64,000 nucleotides of DNA from Candidatus Saccharimonadales bacterium (GTDB lineage Bacteria; Patescibacteriota; Saccharimonadia; Saccharimonadales; UBA4665), in the NCBI GenBank assembly GCA_035546815.1, contig DASZWB010000001.1:20667-84666 (forward strand), read 5' to 3'. Position numbers and translations under genes: made by a program. Of this stretch, positions 14,330 to 50,524 are shown one piece after another; position 1 is the first letter of the stretch, and each line of letters opens with the position of its first letter. The notes under the pieces were generated by a model. That model ran no database searches and was not told the origin of the DNA. It saw only the letters and a list, made by a program, of their open reading frames with translations.

Positions 14330-14403
14330 TGGTGCGAGATACGGGAATCGGACCCGTGCCCCTTGCTTGGGAAGCAAATGTACTACCATTATACTAATCT
14401 CGC
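14330..14403 (-). tRNA. tRNA-Gly (anticodon CCC)
   Basis: The reverse strand reads GCGAGAT..TTTGC-TTCCCAA-GCAAG..CACGG-GTCCGATT..ATCTCGC-A-CCA. The cloverleaf folds by hand. Confidence 0.85.
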
Positions 14404-14409
14404 AAAATG

Positions 14410-14485
14410 TGGAGCCACCTAGCAGGATCGAACTGCTGACCTGCGCGTTACGAATGCGCCGCTCTACCAACTGAGCTAAGGTGGC
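14410..14485 (-). tRNA. tRNA-Thr (anticodon CGT)
   Basis: The reverse strand reads GCCACCT-TA-GCTC-AGTTGGTA-GAGC-G-GCGCA-TTCGTAA-CGCGC-AGGTC-AGCAG-TTCGATC-CTGCT-AGGTGGC-T-CCA, with one A-C mismatch at 31-39. Confidence 0.85.
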
Positions 14486-14566
14486 AAATCAGTCTGTATT
14501 ATAGCAGTTGCTAACAACCGCGAAAATTGTTACTATTACCCCTGTCTTTTCATCGTATGGTGACGC

Positions 14567-14643
14567 GGGCTCGTAGTGAAGAGGCCTATCACGCCTCCCT
14601 GTCACGGAGGAGATCGCCGGTTCGAATCCGGTCGGGCCCGCCA
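14567..14643 (+). tRNA. tRNA-Asp (anticodon GTC)
   Basis: GGGCTCG..CCTCC-CTGTCAC-GGAGG..GCCGG-TTCGAAT-CCGGT-CGGGCCC-G-CCA. Confidence 0.9.
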
Positions 14644-39100: not shown

Positions 39101-39851
39101 TCACGCTTGAGTTAGCGTGTGTAGTCCAGGTGTTTGGATGCCAAATCATTTGAACAAACGTATTCTGACCGTTTGTAACTGTAAAGTAATTTTGGCCATA
39201 GCTAGAGCTCCCTTCTGTGTAATGAGGAATGGTATAAGATCCCGAAGGACCATTAACGCTTATACTCCAGTAGCCATTTTGAGTACTGCCTATGGGGGTG
39301 GGCCGAAGATTACTGAACCAAAAATGAGTGGGGCTGTTTGAGGGGCCGCAATCTAATACATATCCGTTACCTATCTGTGACGTATCCAGCCCTCCGGGAC
39401 CAAAAGCATCCCAGCCAGTGCACTGAGTAGGATGTGCACCTTCAAGGCCTAAGCTATTATCGGTATAGCTTTGAAAACTATTTGTACGATTACTAAAATT
39501 CCCATCAATATCCATAAATATTCTGTCATTCAAATTTGTTTGCTGACCGTTTACCACGCCCCAGTCTGGGTCAGTTCCTGATATACCAGAATTTATATGG
39601 TAGACCGTATCTATCGACTGATTAGTAGAGGCATCATAGGCACTTACAATTAGCCCTGCCATGTTACCGCCATGAGCACCGTTATATTGGGGGCTGACCC
39701 CCCAATTGAAGCTATTTTGAGCCTGCGAAAAAGCAGTCGGATTTGAAGGGCATTGGCCAGTATTGGCCTCAGCCTTATGGCCAGGTAATATTATCCCAGC
39801 ACCTAAAACTACTAGAGCAAAAATACCAATTTTTATAGTCAACTTAAACAT
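36120..39851 (-). CDS. Giant secreted protein (1243 aa), possible pilus-associated adhesin
   Basis: Signal peptide MFKLTIKIGIFALVVLGAGIILPGHKAEA. The middle has Ig-like repeat signatures (QYCQRITF...ACVTV; QYCPKVTISP...NCLTITNEPYFKAKG). The C-terminus has three Cys-bounded W-x-DN-x-LC-type modules. Its start overlaps the upstream gene by 8 nt. Confidence 0.6.
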   Translation of the reverse strand: MFKLTIKIGIFALVVLGAGIILPGHKAEANTGQCPSNPTAFSQAQNSFNWGVSPQYNGAHGGNMAGLIVSAYDASTNQSIDTVYHINSGISGTDPDWGVVNGQQTNLNDRIFMDIDGNFSNRTNSFQSYTDNSLGLEGAHPTQCTGWDAFGPGGLDTSQIGNGYVLDCGPSNSPTHFWFSNLRPTPIGSTQNGYWSISVNGPSGSYTIPHYTEGSSSYGQNYFTVTNGQNTFVQMIWHPNTWTTHANSSVNPSTAQPGQTVTFTHTITTSGDQPSYTWNVVRKYPNDSSPVIARSSPPGYVTTNTNVSISYQIPGGAQDGQQYCQRITFSNQQGGSPASGSSSNACVTVSMNGGGCTDSNGCDASHSLGCSETTYDVSHQDGHRQYIQLTGTDHDGSYLVADNGQGRDTIDLKYAAVSQTVHVIIHRYTWNGSDWIEDSDSPVDHSYGCYHASCSIAQVIDDEQGPPGTVVAGHQFTLQVQVKNDNTDPSAETIPSTVGGYNFSVTEPPENGNPNYTHNDTGFSLNPPGQPYDEGTVFINFTAPSTAQLYHITLYPDLEPHASLGDDCSVDVPIFQHFNIDPSVSIVPGTNAEDPYIAGSTQHGVSYTVGGSLTEGTTTTATTKGSLTNASGTTVDGEHDTIDTYGTGISRQYNYPISSMNAGDQYCPKVTISPGNGYHGPSGYGDRGDNDATKNGNCLTITNEPYFKAKGAGGLAADVKQVAKPSSSGTFTCSGSSDGGLLAGWNDNADPAGADRGASSELSALALLQITGVASDQPASTVTNSPNKLSFANVGKYTASDGSLKPMPAVSSSLDSPALGGYYGGSGDACVTPTKPADVQAKSSPGATTAVTISSLGGSTPHYEYGSSGSTTKVDFGTDTITKPDTKVFVNGDVYISGKIVYSTSGWSYDPGTKTDSIPSLTLYASGNIYIAAGVTQLDGTYISGGTIYTCGTSAYKACAASSLFNGAKNQLVVNGSFVADQVKLLRTFGSLRDEVPTVVPGSTGLPTNVEWSSCGAYGKPQNGESCLSASPSSLGLTCTAINEPGDPNGWGDNVLCLPNSSSLKLAWTSYAANSCTLVQQLIGSAGCNISSGQANLDYIKSHGYPYCTPWNAPDSKNYGWNDNWLCMNQPRATGDPVLEFSLTNDTSQNCTPISEVADSDGTSDGKQTWAKGYYLCEPKATGPSIVPPTLTKCSNAGTWIDHKTCAAEVFQLSPELYLTEPENNGGNGAGSDDSITSLPPVL

Positions 39852-40860
39852 AGACTTTATATCCCAGCTTCTGCTTAGATTGATTTAGGTACTGGGCATA
39901 TGTTAAGCCACTATTGCCACCTTTAGTTGAATCCATCTTTACTATCAAGTAATACGAATCAGTGGTAACATTTTTTTTCGTAAGGGAATTATTTACACTT
40001 ACCACAAATGGTGCAGAAATTTGACCAGCTTTCATACTGTGTATCTTCCCTTGAATTGATTTAGGTAAAATAAGTGGGGTTGCCGGTAAAAATATATTTG
40101 AAGTGTCAAAGGAACCTGAATGGGGAAGTGTTTGATACGCTTGTAGACCTAGCTGTGGGTCGTCGTGTTCCTCTTGTATGGCCTGATCAAAGGTTATTTT
40201 GTGGGTCTTAATTTCATTGTAGATATTTGTAATAAAATTATCCGCGTACTGTTTATCTTGAGCGATGGCCGAGGCATTACCCATCAGGGGGTCAGATGCC
40301 TCTTGAAGTCCTAAAGCCGGGGACTGGAATGCAATGTGTCGGCTAAAGTTAGCAACTATAAGTTGCCCCTTATAAAGGCCCTCCGTATATGCCAATAATT
40401 TATCAAAATAAACGCTGTTCAAATCACTTTGATACACATATTTATTTGTATTTTTTTGGCTGACTATCGATGGACCAAACTTGGCGGTGACGTCACTATC
40501 ACCTACTGTAATGCCGGCTTTTTTAGCCATGGCCTCAGTTAGGTATTTGTCAGCCAGTACGACAGTCGCTTGATGGGCGGTAACTCCCTGGGTTGTACCT
40601 ATTAAATTATCAACGTCTTTCTTATATATTTTATGCCCGGCGGCCTGCGCATACACTTTTTGACCAGGCTTGGCTATATAAACCACCGCCAGAATAATAA
40701 TTACGACCAATAAAATACACGCTGTAAAAATAAAGAGCGCCCTTTTCGTAGGGCGACCACCGCGCCACCAGCGCTTGCCCGCCGCTTGCCCACCGCTGCC
40801 GACCTTTATATCGGAATTCAGGCTAGCGCCCTCGGTATCAGTATTTTTATTAGCCACCAT
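39844..40860 (-). CDS. Membrane-anchored hypothetical protein (SurA_N-like chaperone region possible)
   Basis: 338 aa with an N-terminal TM. AT-rich codon usage differs from the flanking core genes. Confidence 0.45.
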   Translation of the reverse strand: MVANKNTDTEGASLNSDIKVGSGGQAAGKRWWRGGRPTKRALFIFTACILLVVIIILAVVYIAKPGQKVYAQAAGHKIYKKDVDNLIGTTQGVTAHQATVVLADKYLTEAMAKKAGITVGDSDVTAKFGPSIVSQKNTNKYVYQSDLNSVYFDKLLAYTEGLYKGQLIVANFSRHIAFQSPALGLQEASDPLMGNASAIAQDKQYADNFITNIYNEIKTHKITFDQAIQEEHDDPQLGLQAYQTLPHSGSFDTSNIFLPATPLILPKSIQGKIHSMKAGQISAPFVVSVNNSLTKKNVTTDSYYLIVKMDSTKGGNSGLTYAQYLNQSKQKLGYKVYV

Positions 40861-40943: not shown

Positions 40944-41675
40944 CTAAGAGTTGCCCCAATTTTGGCGGAGATCTTTAGTGGCCTCTTCACTTTCTTTGGC
41001 TTGAGCACAATTGCCGTGGACAGCTATACGTAGCGTAAAGTTTCTTTTAGCTTCTACCTTATGTGTCTGCGTATTTTTAATACTTTCTGTCAATGTCAGC
41101 TCAGTTTTCTGAAACTTCCCATTCTCACACTCATTAAAAAGATAATCGGGCCACGCATGAGAAGGCCCATAATTAAGCTCGCTCTCACCTTCTTGATTGC
41201 CAATATAAACAGGATTGTTAGGAGGCCCAAGTTTTATCATAGTTTCAGCATCACCTCTTTTCCCCATCTTTATTTGGCCATGAGAAACCCTTTCCCATAA
41301 AGGCCCGCAACCTATTGGCATAGAAGAATATTCGAACTCACCCGAAATATTCTGAATATAGTAGTGATGAGGTGTAAAAGGCCTAATACCGGCGTGGTTC
41401 ATTACAAGAGGCTTTTTAACTAAGGGTTTTTCAAGTCCCGCACGAATGCACTCCTGTTTTGAAGGCGCCTCGAAGACCCCTTGAGTGCTTGTAGTATTCG
41501 GCTCATTTTCAGCTCCTACCGGTTCAGCTACATAAGCTTCCGCAGCGCTTGCTACACCTAGAGAAGCTATACCAATGGTAGCAAGTTGACCGATACGACT
41601 ATTGCGAAAAGCTGTTTCGAGGCGTTCAAATACACCAGGATTGTCAACAATGGGTGCCTGATTAGGGTTGCTCAT
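40944..41675 (-). CDS. Hypothetical secreted protein
   Basis: 243 aa with a hydrophobic N-terminal segment (IGQLATIGIASLGVASAAEA). The gene is AT-rich and I recognise no family. Confidence 0.45.
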   Translation of the reverse strand: MSNPNQAPIVDNPGVFERLETAFRNSRIGQLATIGIASLGVASAAEAYVAEPVGAENEPNTTSTQGVFEAPSKQECIRAGLEKPLVKKPLVMNHAGIRPFTPHHYYIQNISGEFEYSSMPIGCGPLWERVSHGQIKMGKRGDAETMIKLGPPNNPVYIGNQEGESELNYGPSHAWPDYLFNECENGKFQKTELTLTESIKNTQTHKVEAKRNFTLRIAVHGNCAQAKESEEATKDLRQNWGNS

Positions 41676-46885: not shown

Positions 46886-47407
46886 CTAAATAGCCAGCAT
46901 TTTGCGCAGGGTTTTGATGTTACGGTTAGTGTTGAAATTTCTGTATTTGGCCTTGGCGAGCGTTTTGCCGAAGGAGCTGCGCAGCGTCAGGCCCTGATCG
47001 ACGCGCCAGTAGATGACGCCGCGGCCGGTTTGGACTTTTTCGCCCCTGCCGAGTTCAAAATCGTCAGCCAAAATGGCCTTTTCTAGCCCGTTTTCGATAA
47101 AGATCACATAGTCATGCTGCTTGCTGCTAGCGGTGCCGAACGGATAGCCGTCAACGATTGCCCGGAGCCGCTCAAGCGGCACGACTTGGACGATGGCCGG
47201 ATAAGCAAAGGTTTTGGTCAGCGCGGCTTCGATCAATTTTTTTAAGTCAGCGGCCGCAGCATCGCTCTCAAAGACGACATTGCCGGATTGCAGCAGCGTA
47301 GCCACATTATGCAAACCGGCCTTGTCCAGACAAACGCGCAAATCGGCCATTTTGACGACCCGCCCGCCCACGTTAATACCGCGCAGAAACGCCGCGTAGC
47401 GCGCCAT
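46886..47407 (-). CDS. DUF1697 domain protein
   Basis: MARYAAFLRGINVGGRVVKMADLRVCL is the DUF1697 signature N-terminus. Confidence 0.75.
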   Translation of the reverse strand: MARYAAFLRGINVGGRVVKMADLRVCLDKAGLHNVATLLQSGNVVFESDAAAADLKKLIEAALTKTFAYPAIVQVVPLERLRAIVDGYPFGTASSKQHDYVIFIENGLEKAILADDFELGRGEKVQTGRGVIYWRVDQGLTLRSSFGKTLAKAKYRNFNTNRNIKTLRKMLAI

Positions 47408-47572
47408 TTATTGCTTCGGCGTTTGCCGGCGCACCACCAGCACGTCGTAGACGAAAATGATGGCCGCCAGCACCAGAGCGATGTAAATCAGCGCTCCCAA
47501 AATGTGCAGGAAGACGCCGATCAGCCAAATCAGCACCAGCACGGCCGCGATAGTTAATAAAATATTTCCCAT
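47408..47572 (-). CDS. lmo0937-family small membrane protein
   Basis: MGNILLTIAAVLVLIWLIGVFLHILGALIYIALVLAAIIFVYDVLV. Start set at the ATG lying 6 nt after a TACAAT box. The track start at 47590 is the alternative. Confidence 0.55.
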   Translation of the reverse strand: MGNILLTIAAVLVLIWLIGVFLHILGALIYIALVLAAIIFVYDVLVVRRQTPKQ

Positions 47573-47605
47573 GCCCTCATTGTAACGCATCTAACGATAA
47601 GAATG

Positions 47606-47620
47606 TGACATGTCAGATTG
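47606..47620. repeat. Terminal inverted repeat, unit 1 left (TGACATGTCAGATTG)
   Basis: Perfect reverse complement of 48343-48357 and identical to 48555-48569. The core TGACATGTCA is itself a 10-nt palindrome. Confidence 0.95.
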
Positions 47621-48342
47621 CGGCGCGGAACTGGTGGCGGGGAGAGCGAAAACCGCTCAGGCTAGGCTCTCCCCGCACCAGTGCTTGTGTTCGTCCTGCT
47701 CTCGGACCTATCGGTATCGGAGCCGTGACACCGTTGATAGGACCGCTGCTATGTTGCGTGAACACCTGGTTAGGTCATACCCCGTGACTACGCTTGTCAG
47801 CACGACCGAGGCGCGTGGCCGTTTGCCAGCACGGCTCCAGATGAACACTCGCCTAACGAACTGCGGCTTTAGCCCGATGGACCACGGGTCATGAAGCGAC
47901 ACAGTTCGGCGTGGGTAGAAGTAGTACAAGCGGGCGGCGCGAGAAGACCTACGAAGGCGGCGGAGAGGAGGACCTCAAAACCACCAGCTTCGGAGCCGGA
48001 AGGTTGCCTTGTAACGCTCCGTCTCGTCTTCTCGCGCTCAGCCCGGGCTAGAGGCGCCGCATCCTCGCGAATTGGCAGGGAGATTCGCGAATCAATTGCA
48101 CACGCCCCCTCACTGGCGCAGCGGACACTGATTCGGGTAATGGCCGCGCGCCAGCAAGTGTGGCAATTGGTGACTACTTGGCTGTCGTCAGCTCCTCCGG
48201 CGGAACTTTATAACGATAACTTCGCTTCCGCTCCTTACGGACGCCCCAGTGCTTGGGACGGCACGGATGACGCAACTTAAATAGACTTCTCATGGCTCTT
48301 CTCCCTTGTGCCCGTTTTGCGCTATTACAAAAAACACAACTA

Positions 48343-48357
48343 CAATCTGACATGTCA
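48343..48357. repeat. Terminal inverted repeat, unit 1 right (CAATCTGACATGTCA)
   Basis: Perfect reverse complement of 47606-47620 and identical to 49278-49292. Confidence 0.95.
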
Positions 48358-48429
48358 AGGTGCTAACCTCGGAAAAACTGCGAACTACCTTGAGCTCAAG
48401 CGGCCTCTCAATCCAAAATTAGTACTATA

Positions 48430-48458
48430 ATTAAACGCTAGCTTAAAGAAAATGTCAA
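48430..48458 (-). promoter_or_regulatory. Promoter P1: TTGACA-N17-TTTAAT reading toward unit 1
   Basis: -35 is the complement of 48453-48458 and -10 the complement of 48430-48435. Boxes and spacer length match the second copy exactly, while the spacer sequence differs. Confidence 0.55.
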
Positions 48459-48554
48459 TGGTGCGGCACTTGCGGCACCTTAGACGAAGTATTATTGAAT
48501 TATTCGAACTGCCAGCGGCATCTCTCAAAGCCAATAATTAATGATTATGGAAAA

Positions 48555-48569
48555 TGACATGTCAGATTG
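48555..48569. repeat. Terminal inverted repeat, unit 2 left (TGACATGTCAGATTG)
   Basis: Perfect reverse complement of 49278-49292. Confidence 0.95.
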
Positions 48570-49128
48570 ATGGGGGCGAAGCGGCTAAAGGTTTGAGAAA
48601 GCGGCGCGGGGAGAGTGAGTCTTCGCGGGGCGAAGTAACCAGATTCCGGACAAATCCAGTCGTGCTACTCACTCTCCCGTTGCCGGCTTTGGTTTACATC
48701 CGCTTTACACGAACCCTGTCTCGGTGGGAGGCGCCAAACGGCACTTGAGACGATAGGCCCGCCGCCTGGGCGATGAAATGCCCGTACGTTACGCGGATAC
48801 CTCCACTCCCGAACACCATCGGGGGCGAAGCCTTTGAAAACTCAAAAAGCAAAATAGAGACCCGAGCGACGAGAAAGCCCCCCAAACTTAGGGACAGGCT
48901 GTGTGTGTATCACTCGCACTGCCCAGTGCGTGCCTGCAACCTTCCGGATTCTTTTGGAACCTTTCCGGTATCGCTTTCTCGCGCTCGGTATCTCTCCCCC
49001 TGTAATGACGCGCACGGCGGACTCTGATGAAGTACCAACTACCTGCATCGGAGCACAACTTGGGCCGTGGGCGCCTTACTGCCTGTTACGACGGTACTTA
49101 TCCCTCCCAGGAGTAACCGTCCAGGCAA

Positions 49129-49160
49129 GTTTTGCGGTTTTGCGGTTTTGCGATTTTGCC
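49129..49160. repeat. Tandem octamer repeat (GTTTTGCG x3 plus ATTTTGCC) inside unit 2
   Basis: Read directly from the sequence: gttttgcg gttttgcg gttttgcg attttgcc. Unit 1 has a single GTTTTGCG at the equivalent end (48313-48320). Confidence 0.9.
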
Positions 49161-49277
49161 TTAGCAAAAAGGACTCAAACTTTTGACATTATCAGAATAC
49201 GAGCAAAGCGGCGGCGCGAGTGGCTGCTCGGCGGCTGCGCTGGTCGTATCCCAATAATATCGCTTGCGCGGTTCAAA

Positions 49278-49292
49278 CAATCTGACATGTCA
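49278..49292. repeat. Terminal inverted repeat, unit 2 right (CAATCTGACATGTCA)
   Basis: Perfect reverse complement of 48555-48569. Confidence 0.95.
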
Positions 49293-49378
49293 AAGTGCTA
49301 ACCTCGGGGAATACACGGCGAATCCAGGCTTTTCGTGCGCGGACTCCAGCCGGTCTCTCGACCCAAAATTGCTATATT

Positions 49379-49407
49379 ATTAAACGCCTCTCGAGAGAAA
49401 ATGTCAA
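49379..49407 (-). promoter_or_regulatory. Promoter P2: TTGACA-N17-TTTAAT reading toward unit 2
   Basis: -35 is the complement of 49402-49407 and -10 the complement of 49379-49384, with a 17-nt spacer. The flanking ACCA and GCG bases are also conserved with P1. Confidence 0.55.
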
Positions 49408-49441
49408 TGGTTCGGCCGCTCGGATGGTAAAATAAAACTCT

Positions 49442-50524
49442 ATGGCACTCTCTATCGGCATCGTCGGGCTGCCCAATGTTGGCAAGTCTACCCTGTTTAA
49501 CGCCCTGACCGGCAGCAATATTTTGGCGGCTAATTATCCGTTTGCGACCATTGAGCCGAATACCGGCATTGTGCCGGTGCCGGACCCGCGGCTGGCTAGG
49601 CTCGGCGAGTTATATAAGACTAATAAAATCGTGCCGGCCACGGTGACGTTTGTGGACATTGCCGGGCTGGTGGCCGGCGCCAGCGAGGGCGAAGGGCTCG
49701 GCAATCAGTTTTTGAGCCATATCCGCAGCACCGACGCCATCGTGCAGGTGGTGCGGGCTTTTGACGATGCCAATGTGACGCATGTTGACGCGGCGCGCGA
49801 ACCATTGCGCGACATCGAGGTCATCAATACCGAGCTAGTGCTTGCCGATTTGCAAACCGTCGCCAAGCGCCTGCCGAAGCTCGAAAAAGAGGCCCGCGCC
49901 GACCCGAAATTGAAGCCGCTGATGGCGACTTACCAGCAGGTGAACACTTTGCTTAATCAGGGCCAGCCGCTCTGGAATCACCCTGAAGTCAACCGCGATC
50001 ACCTTGCCGACTTGCACCTTTTGACCATGAAGCCGGTTATTTACTTGTTCAATCTGGATGAGGCCGGCTTGGGCGATGGTTCAACCCGCGGCGCGCTGCA
50101 GCAACTGGTGGCGCCGGCCCGGGCGCTGTTCGTCTGCGCCAAGTTGGAGAGCGAATTGAAGGATCTGGACGCTGCGGACGCCGCCGAGCTGCTGGCAAGC
50201 TACGGCCAAACCGAATCGGGTCTGGTGCAGCTGATCCATGCCGCTTATGGCACGCTCGGCCTGCAAAGTTTTCTGACGGCCGGCGAAAAAGAGGTCCGCG
50301 CCTGGACGATTCCGGCGGGCGCCACGGCGCCGCAAGCGGCCGGCGTCATTCACGGCGACTTTGAGCGCGGCTTTATTGCCGCCGACGTAGTGAGCTACGA
50401 CGACCTGCTGGCCGCCGGTTCCCTGGCCGCCGCCCGCGCCGCCGGCAAAGTCCGCACCGAAGGCAAAGGCTACATTATGCAGCCCGACGACGTGGTGGAA
50501 TTCAAATTTAATGTTTCTAAATAA
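49442..50524 (+). CDS. ychF: Ribosome-binding ATPase YchF
   Basis: MALSIGIVGLPNVGKSTLFNALT...ANYPFATIEPNTG... plus a C-terminal TGS-like domain. 360 aa. Confidence 0.9.
   Translation: MALSIGIVGLPNVGKSTLFNALTGSNILAANYPFATIEPNTGIVPVPDPRLARLGELYKTNKIVPATVTFVDIAGLVAGASEGEGLGNQFLSHIRSTDAIVQVVRAFDDANVTHVDAAREPLRDIEVINTELVLADLQTVAKRLPKLEKEARADPKLKPLMATYQQVNTLLNQGQPLWNHPEVNRDHLADLHLLTMKPVIYLFNLDEAGLGDGSTRGALQQLVAPARALFVCAKLESELKDLDAADAAELLASYGQTESGLVQLIHAAYGTLGLQSFLTAGEKEVRAWTIPAGATAPQAAGVIHGDFERGFIAADVVSYDDLLAAGSLAAARAAGKVRTEGKGYIMQPDDVVEFKFNVSK

Follow-up and report, generated by a model that had tools for sequence, protein, structure and literature searches.

Two tandem minus-strand units between ychF and a DUF5670 gene in a Candidatus Saccharimonadales genome, a candidate new family of large structured RNAs

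We found that the 1.85-kb gap between ychF and the gene of a DUF5670 protein holds two units of non-coding DNA, 752 and 738 nt long, which are probably tandem, independently promoted minus-strand genes for large structured non-coding RNAs (ncRNAs) of a new family. The gap lies within the window, the whole 64-kb stretch of Candidatus Saccharimonadales DNA that was analysed, and four mismatch-free copies of the 15-mer TGACATGTCAGATTG delimit both units (Table 1). Each is longer than 500 nt, has no conserved open reading frame (ORF) and has a covariation-backed fold, which makes them candidate large structured bacterial ncRNAs in the sense of a descriptive kind, not of a homology family. An earlier note, made from the letters alone, had proposed a candidate new large structured RNA family here. 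Its sequence claims all hold, and the proposal is supported by syntenic recurrence, covariation, fold stability and the lack of an Rfam relative. Two of its readings were revised: the functional strand is minus, not plus, and the terminal repeats form an RNA closing helix (P1), not transposon ends. Since the functional strand is minus, the flank of ~115 nt that had been placed after each unit is in fact the upstream promoter and 5' leader; its conservation was borne out (73–97% identity between copies), its position was not.

Table 1. Coordinates of the features at the locus, numbered from the first nucleotide of the window
Feature	Coordinates	Strand	Details
ychF	49442..50524	+	divergent from unit A
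Unit A promoter	49379..49407	-	-35 TTGACA 49407-49402, 17-nt spacer, -10 TTTAAT 49384-49379
Unit A 5' leader	49293..49370	-	~71-nt hairpin, base helix AAUUUUGGG / CCCYRARRUU, then linker AGCACUU
Unit A (type A RNA body)	48555..49292	-	738 nt, closed by P1
P1 5' strand, unit A, UGACAUGUCAGAUUG	49278..49292	-	invariant in 12 of 13 units
P3, long hairpin, type A only, UUAUUGGGAUACGA... / ...UCGUAUUCUGAUAA	49181..49261	-	variable tip
Central long-range helix, unit A, GAGAGAUACCGAGCGCGAGAAAGCG with GCUUUCUCGUCGCUCGGGUCUCU	48856..48997	-	encloses three hairpins
3' domain hairpin, unit A, GGGAGAGUGAG ... CUCACUCUCCC	48602..48685	-	arms 48602-48620/48667-48685
P1 3' strand, unit A, CAAUCUGACAUGUCA	48555..48569	-	then UUUUCC
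Unit B promoter	48430..48458	-	-35 TTGACA 48458-48453, 17-nt spacer, -10 TTTAAT 48435-48430
Unit B 5' leader hairpin and linker AGCACCU	48358..48420	-	single-sequence fold
Unit B (type B RNA body)	47606..48357	-	752 nt, closed by P1
P1 arms, unit B	48343-48357 and 47606-47620	-	
Central long-range helix, unit B, GCGCGAGAAGAC / GUCUUCUCGCGC	47937..48037	-	identical in L043b
3' domain hairpin, unit B, GCGGGGAGAGC / GCUCUCCCCGC	47631..47681	-	arms 47637-47647/47666-47676
DUF5670 small membrane protein gene	47408..47590	-	directly downstream of unit B
TGACATGTCAGATTG copies	47606-47620, 48343-48357, 48555-48569, 49278-49292	+, -, +, -	

Thirteen units, 601–757 nt long, were identified across 11 related Saccharimonadales genomes, all of them between ychF and DUF1697. 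Two loci (L053 and L059) have no unit, and there ychF and DUF1697 are only 37–120 nt apart. The gene downstream of the units varies and may be DUF5670, DUF1697, an ABC transporter or a further unit. The two units of the window are old paralogues, which we call types A and B; the duplication is taken to be old because L043, whose DUF1697 protein is 74% identical, shares the A–B tandem and carries an orthologue of unit B (L043:4147-4798). The suggestion of an old duplication retained by selection on structure, not on coding, is supported by the recurrence of the units, by covariation, by fold stability and by the lack of codon periodicity. The interiors have diverged, as previously described, to the point that BLAST cannot align them, yet the landmarks are shared and their order is kept. 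Scans of genome and metagenome collections used strict patterns and returned 1 and 2 loci only, so the distribution of the family is under-sampled; as far as sampled, it is confined to one Candidatus Saccharimonadales clade.

Both units contain 4–13 stop codons per frame, of all three kinds, consistent with the claim that the gap is free of coding sequence. Six-frame comparison of the two units picked up nothing alike beyond the promoter, leader and arms that they share, confirming that their ORFs are not conserved. Codon-periodic substitution, named beforehand as a sign against an RNA family, was looked for in the orthologues and was absent, with substitutions spread evenly over the three positions (e.g. 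73/71/82). Indels of 1, 2, 4, 5, 7, 8 and 11 nt are common among orthologues and break the frames. Two plus-strand ORFs, 129 and 132 aa long (47891-48280, 48903-49301), could suggest that each unit is a protein gene that has decayed or is decoded in an alternative way, but this reading is extremely improbable given all three stop codons in all six frames, no translated similarity between the unit interiors, and the even substitutions and common non-triplet indels.

Searches for known relatives of the units were negative. With Rfam 15, cmscan at gathering thresholds reported six tRNAs in the whole window and nothing else, and relaxed searches of 47400-49500 (E≤10) and of seven related loci (E≤1) gave only sub-threshold look-alikes of miRNA, snoRNA, U12 snRNA and sRNA. 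The Rfam check gave no match to GOLLD, ROOL, OLE, HEARO or raiA and likewise excluded group I and II introns, RNase P RNA, tmRNA, 6S, SRP and rRNA, as the novelty of the family demanded. No match was obtained by BLAST against phages and plasmids. Viral contigs contained 36 single matches to the 15-mer, none with the extended motif, and these were set down to chance. Half-sites of CIRCE, CRP and FNR-type operators do not fit the arms, as judged by eye against their consensus sequences.

The units fold stably, and more so on the minus strand. Minimum free energies on this strand are −316.5 kcal/mol for unit A (z −6.8) and −334.5 kcal/mol for unit B (z −8.8), against plus-strand z-scores of −6.0 and −5.7; RNAalifold gives consensus energies of −189 kcal/mol in sense and −150 kcal/mol in antisense, and G–U pairs are numerous in the fold. 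Orthologues of unit A are present in L039, L041, L044 and L043 (L043a). Compensatory changes affect 40 of 198 predicted pairs compared with 17.8±3.0 in shuffles (0/500 reach 40), a control that is optimistic since the five type A sequences used are close kin. In a slide control, in which partners were shifted by 1–3 columns, 7–12 pairs had compensatory changes. Within the central region of unit A (helices 7–13), compensatory changes affect five of the 16 pairs that form helix 8, and the stem of P3 is preserved in L045 via paired changes. Two landmarks singled out from the sequence alone were recovered and now have a place in the fold. The 11-mer TTCTCGCGCTC was found at 48029-48039 and 48976-48986, offset by 423 and 421 nt from the left repeat, and is a strand of the central long-range helix. 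The GC-rich hairpin reported near one end of each unit was found in both and is the 3' domain. Both landmarks are conserved, and the 3' domain hairpin, with one purine-rich and one pyrimidine-rich arm, has a homologue in each of the 13 units, where its sequence changes are paired.

The identical 15-nt inverted repeats described earlier are indeed present as four perfect copies, two per unit, and TGACATGTCAGATTG is absent from the rest of the 64-kb window. Allowing up to three mismatches yielded nine matches against 1.1 expected in shuffles, none of 100 of which reached nine. By computed pairing, P1 joins both unit ends in 13/13 units, its 15 bp enclosing a body of 570–730 nt. Its 5' strand is invariant in 12/13; in L045, P1 differs by an A–U to G–C exchange and a G–C to G–U change. 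The core of the arm is a perfect 10-bp palindrome (TGACATGTCA). Conservation runs 5 nt past the palindrome, and the arms always occur as an inverted pair 600–750 nt apart. P1 is accompanied by the motif AGCACYU on its 5' side and CUUAUCAC on its 3' side. Such sequence invariance is unlike a plain RNA helix and fits recognition of the DNA equally well.

Two DNA-level readings of the arms were weighed against an RNA closing helix. The units might be DNA switches that invert (invertons or a shufflon), with 15-bp repeats serving as recombinase crossover sites between which the 0.6–0.75-kb segment flips relative to a fixed outside promoter. Perfect inverted repeats that are near-invariant across genomes around a drifting interior would suit this, as would a promoter just outside one repeat directed inward and a locus content that differs between genomes. 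However, 13/13 assembled units are oriented alike relative to the promoter, no recombinase was found among Pfam-annotated neighbours within ~5–8 kb, the interior has strand-specific RNA-type covariation with G–U pairs, and the G–T opposition in the L045 arm would be poorly tolerated by a crossover core that needs exact identity; we consider inversion quite unlikely. That the pair of units represents copies of a non-autonomous, MITE-like transposon is very unlikely, although their 15-bp terminal inverted repeats are perfect and units are present or absent among related genomes (missing in L053 and L059). Target-site duplications are absent in 12/12 units (flanks such as gcacct / ttttcc), there are no further arm copies in the 64-kb window or off-site in the related loci checked, and the single syntenic site holds copies that diverge in step with their host genomes. 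Furthermore, the repeats do not enclose the conserved promoter and leader, the neighbourhood contains no transposase, and the phage and plasmid searches returned nothing.

Every unit has its own minus-strand promoter, TTGACA-N17-TTTAAT, with both hexamers kept in 13/13 units and a variable spacer sequence. A simple consensus scan missed the unit A promoter because its −10 hexamer has T at position 2; transcription of unit A would start near 49372. The 5' leader of ~60–80 nt comprises a hairpin and a short linker. The hairpin recurs in most units in single-sequence folds, and across 11 sequences its base helix retains pairing through U–G to U–A exchanges. A U-run directly follows P1 in units without DUF5670 behind them. 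No canonical intrinsic terminator was found downstream of the units, which counts against reading them as RNA genes.

The module of leader and 5' arm is not exclusively bound to an RNA body, because in L040 it stands before a protein-coding gene. This arrangement bears on two further readings. In one, a transcription factor would use the palindrome TGACATGTCA, present four times, as its operator, and the region would be a long regulatory or leader segment for ychF, DUF5670 or DUF1697, its transcript having no function of its own. Besides L040, the perfect 10-bp palindromic core, the invariant arms and nearby Crp-family and MarR regulators favour an operator, which we nevertheless regard as unlikely: conservation extends beyond the palindrome and is always that of a widely spaced inverted pair, the downstream gene changes from genome to genome, and ~200 predicted base pairs with covariation between the sites would go unexplained. 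The other holds that the units are integron-like cassettes in which arm', promoter and arm fold together as a recombination site and the exchangeable cargo consists of the bodies. A tandem array, variable locus content and the L040 gene behind the same 5' arm would agree with this; yet no integrase lies in the neighbourhood, the type A and B bodies are homologous (central helix and 3' domain are common to both), the A–B order is the same in the window and in L043, and the arms are unlike attC R/L boxes, making cassettes highly improbable.

Returning to the interpretation as RNA genes, the conserved elements suggest the following course of events. A near-consensus sigma-70-type promoter would fire a few nucleotides ahead of the 5'-terminal hairpin, as its conservation indicates. 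The linker AGCACYU would then lead into the 5' strand of P1, whose partner arrives 570–730 nt later, and the 15-bp helix would close a multi-domain body, a step for which the pairing is computed and one unit offers a compensatory change. The body would consist of ~20 helices, among them P3 (type A only) and the central helix with its three inner hairpins, followed by the purine/pyrimidine-rich 3' domain hairpin and a G-poor tail, in a predicted fold that covariation supports. Because P1 is near-invariant while all other helices drift, we infer sequence-specific recognition by a protein, most likely one that takes part in processing or defines the ends. Where DUF5670 does not follow, the U-run after P1 would fit termination. 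The mature RNA of ~0.65–0.85 kb may work in trans, as a stable RNA with a structural or ribonucleoprotein (RNP) role. On balance, we lean towards an undescribed class of ornate ncRNA of ~0.65–0.85 kb in this ultra-small Saccharimonadales lineage of the Candidate Phyla Radiation (CPR), encoded by a single gene or by two tandem paralogues, with a closing helix and flanking motifs that are read by a dedicated protein or drive RNA–RNA multimerisation and a fast-evolving body under structural constraint.

The closest counterparts in kind are the large ornate bacterial ncRNAs OLE, GOLLD, ROOL and raiA (RF01071, RF01998, RF03087 and RF03072), whose functions are partly known or unknown and which likewise exceed 500 nt, are intergenic and ORF-less, have their own promoter and many covarying helices, and are narrow in phylogenetic range. 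The present RNA matches none of them by cmscan, even at E≤10, and differs in its 15-bp closing helix, which is invariant and partly palindromic, in a leader hairpin set apart at the 5' end, in its tandem paralogues and in its occurrence in CPR bacteria. In rRNA operons, a leader and a long-range RNase III processing stem bracket the 16S or 23S rRNA. By analogy, the units resemble this layout, with a long-range helix of the end sequences below a structured leader: the order of promoter, structured leader, 5' helix strand, large RNA and 3' helix strand is the same, and tandem structured RNAs sit each within its own stem, whereas here the enclosed RNA is not rRNA and the stem measures no more than 15 bp, with an invariant sequence. 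Invertons and MITEs also place short perfect inverted repeats around a non-coding segment of 0.6–0.75 kb; the units differ from them in their single orientation (13/13), the lack of a nearby recombinase or transposase and of target-site duplication, the single syntenic locus among the loci checked, and the RNA-structure constraint on the interior. The omega-RNAs of HEARO/IscB and of TnpB are transposon-end-derived guide RNAs and likewise are structured RNAs beside repeat-like ends; no IscB or TnpB gene and no Rfam HEARO match was found here, and the present RNA exceeds them two- to fourfold in length.

Bacterial ncRNAs that combine a length above ~500 nt with a complex conserved fold are, to our knowledge, very rare and amount to a handful of classes. 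Members of these classes have repeatedly proved to be ribozymes, cores of RNPs or particles that self-assemble. We found no large structured ncRNA described for the CPR in the literature; searches on large or structured ncRNA in Saccharibacteria, Patescibacteria and CPR, on new large structured RNA classes, on the TM7x transcriptome and on the motif string itself returned nothing relevant. CPR genomes are ~1 Mb and have scant room for dispensable sequence, and this lineage devotes 0.8–1.85 kb to one or two copies, each with a strong-looking promoter. If the proposed class is real, it would be a new machine, either an RNP or one made of RNA alone, in minimal-genome bacteria. The invariant 15-bp helix should ease the capture of a protein partner or processing enzyme, and the fixed syntenic locus, the natural A/B paralogues and the natural deletions provide handles for comparison. 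Among the variable neighbouring ORFs (154, 440, 708, 256, 199 and 332 aa), the sole informative Pfam match was a weak one to a methyltransferase. The DUF5670 gene likely has its real start at the ATG at 47572, 7 nt past a TACAAT box.

In the window, the earlier note had described a gap without any credible gene, and this is borne out: units A and B carry stops of all three kinds in all six frames (4–13 per frame), and translated comparison of A with B gave no similarity in their interiors. That note had also correctly placed the four 15-mers that form the units' inverted terminal repeats (arms), both GC-rich hairpins, the 11-mer (offsets 423 and 421) and a conserved flank of ~115 nt beside each unit. 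The 15-mer has four perfect copies and no others in the window, and allowing up to three mismatches gives 9 matches versus 1.1 expected. The finding as a whole stands after two corrections, to the strand, which is minus, and to the role of the flank, which contains minus-strand promoter hexamers and a leader. On the minus strand right of each unit we found TTGACA and TTTAAT separated by 17 nt; the two hexamers are conserved throughout the 13 units of our collection, with a variable spacer. The leader starts a few nucleotides downstream and folds into a hairpin. In the 11 sequences compared, the base helix of this hairpin (AAUUUUGGG / CCCYRARRUU) has U-G to U-A exchanges, and a 7-nt linker, AGCACYU, separates the leader from the first 15-mer. 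This order of promoter, leader and linker indicates that the minus strand is the one read, so that, judging by sequence, the units point away from ychF, in the direction of DUF5670 and DUF1697. DUF5670 and DUF1697 each seem to have a -10 box of their own, 6–7 nt before the ATG, and both look leaderless or nearly so (Table).

A DNA pattern taken from the right end identified L002, a Candidatus Saccharibacteria MAG, in a genome collection, and it also matched two metagenome contigs, L039 and L040. Of these, L039 aligns collinearly with the window, at a nucleotide identity of about 80–85%. The neighbour protein DUF1697 has many Saccharimonadales homologues, and contigs fetched for these supplied further syntenic loci; a search of all loci for the 15-mer yielded 13 distinct units across 11 genomes, counting the identical pairs L041/L042 and L051/L052 once each. 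All 13 sit between ychF and DUF1697.

Table. Locations of the units and of other features (window positions unless a locus is named)
Feature	Location	Description
Gap	47591-49441	
Unit A	49292->48555	minus strand, 738 nt
Unit B	48357->47606	minus strand, 752 nt
Single-unit loci	L002, L039, L041, L044, L045, L051, L060, L061, L062	
Two-unit locus	L043	
DUF5670 start	47560-47605	TACAAT, 7 nt, ATG
DUF1697 start	L002:3130-3213; L061:4952-5003	TATAAT, 6 nt, ATG
Insertion in unit A	49129-49159	includes a short tandem repeat
Inverted repeat	L039:9890-10005	long, near-perfect; arms ~30-45 nt
Leader and 5' arm, no RNA body	L040:87-1215	332-aa ORF follows
Y1 transposase gene	L053:9693-10253 (also L054-L056)	IS200/IS605 type
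Low-G+C segment	39001-42000	overlaps ORFs 39844-40860 and 40944-41675 and the end of a 1243-aa ORF
tRNA cluster	14333-14640	three genes in ~300 nt, both strands

We then considered structure. Minus-strand folds reached -316.5 kcal/mol (z -6.8) for unit A and -334.5 kcal/mol (z -8.8) for unit B; plus-strand z-scores were -6.0 and -5.7. For five type A orthologues (window A, L039, L041, L044 and L043a, the first four sharing 65–84% pairwise identity), RNAalifold predicted a consensus of 198 pairs in 24 helices, at -189 kcal/mol on the minus (sense) strand versus -150 on the complement. Compensatory double changes affected 40 of the 198 pairs versus 17.8±3.0 after shuffling, with none of 500 shuffles reaching 40, although this control is generous with only five related sequences. 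A slide control (partners moved 1–3 columns) left 7–12 such pairs versus 40, and 35–44% paired cells versus 91.7%; it and the strand asymmetry agree in direction with the shuffle result. These calculations demonstrate, computationally, both the fold and its conservation. Substitutions among the type A orthologues are spread evenly over the three codon positions and indels of 1, 2, 4, 5, 7, 8 and 11 nt are common; on such sequence features we judge the units not to be coding.

From 5' to 3', the predicted RNA consists of the leader hairpin, the linker and P1, a 15-bp closing helix formed by the two arms. Next, in type A, comes the long hairpin P3 (UUAUURGRAUACGA / UCGUAUUCYRAUAA, with a variable tip), whose stem is retained in L045 by paired changes. 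A central long-range helix encloses three hairpins and contains the 11-mer, and further hairpins lead to a 3' domain hairpin whose strands are purine-rich (5') and pyrimidine-rich (3'). This hairpin is present in 13/13 units; its paired changes include GGGAGAGUGAG/CUCACUCUCCC, GGGGAGGGUGAG/CUCACCCUCCCC and GGAGGACGC/GCGUCCUCC. A G-poor tail, the P1 3' strand and, downstream of P1, a semi-conserved YCYUUAUCAC motif complete the order. Unit A has a lineage-specific insertion, part of which is GTTTTGCG repeated 3–4 times (CGCAAAAC in the RNA sense); the insertion is absent from its orthologues in L039, L041 and L044.

The units form two paralogue types. Unit A groups with L039, L041, L044 and L043a, with L051, L002, L061, L060, L062 and L045 as more distant members, and unit B groups with L043b. 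The window and L043, whose DUF1697 proteins are 74% identical, share the order A then B, so the duplication is old. Arms, promoter and leader are identical in both copies; the bodies have diverged past BLAST detection.

Across the collection, 22 of 26 arms are identical; L002 and L051 differ in the terminal base alone, and both arms of L045 are changed (A-U to G-C and G-C to G-U). All helices other than P1 drift, and the body of window A is 65% identical to that of L039 versus 80–85% for flanking genes. This invariance of P1 against a drifting body favours sequence-specific recognition, either of P1 itself or of its DNA. The main residual doubt is that the invariant arms might act on DNA, as an inversion switch or operator, rather than on RNA. 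Orientation is fixed in 13/13 units, the neighbourhoods examined contained no recombinase or transposase near units, no target-site duplication was found beside them, and a U-run directly follows P1 in exactly those units not followed by DUF5670. For these reasons, and by analogy with the stems bracketing rRNAs, we favour an RNA-level reader of P1. Such a reader could be a processing or end-defining factor; alternatively, P1 might pair intermolecularly through the palindromic UGACAUGUCA.

Against Rfam 15 (4227 families), the window gave only six tRNA matches at gathering score, and permissive scans of the region (E<=10) and of seven related loci (E<=1) gave nothing real. These scans exclude any detectable relationship to GOLLD, ROOL, OLE, HEARO, raiA, group I and II introns, RNase P, tmRNA, 6S or SRP. 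Searches of phage and plasmid collections gave no similar sequence, and we found no description of these units in the literature. The units are best interpreted as large structured RNA genes belonging to a new Saccharimonadales family, represented here by an old tandem pair; we infer that they are transcribed, that the RNA is processed at P1 and that it acts in trans in a structural or RNP role.

The ychF–DUF1697 interval is itself a hot spot for differences in gene content. No unit is present in L053 or L059, where the two genes are separated by 37–120 nt, L048–L050 have two protein genes instead of a unit, and L041, L044 and L045 have additional ORFs beside it. In this interval RNA units number 0, 1 or 2, and uncharacterised ORFs of 154, 440, 708 and 199 aa, a methyltransferase-like ORF of 256 aa, an ABC transporter and a LysM protein may or may not be present. 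The Y1 transposase gene, found in a lineage without an RNA unit, is ~3 kb away from DUF1697. In L039, but not in the window, an inserted inverted repeat (GGGGCGACTATCTGTGCCGGGCAAGTAGAG... and its complement) separates the ychF start from the RNA promoter. On L040, the leader and 5' arm (TTAGCACCTTGACATGTCAGATTG) are followed after ~115 nt by an ORF that has no Pfam match and whose product has a signal peptide, a stretch rich in His, a linker rich in Pro/Thr and, at its C terminus, a membrane anchor; the contig stops short of where any 3' arm could show. Elsewhere in the window, a tRNA cluster was seen, and one segment with G+C of 0.43–0.45, versus 0.52–0.63 in most of the remainder, may be acquired DNA.
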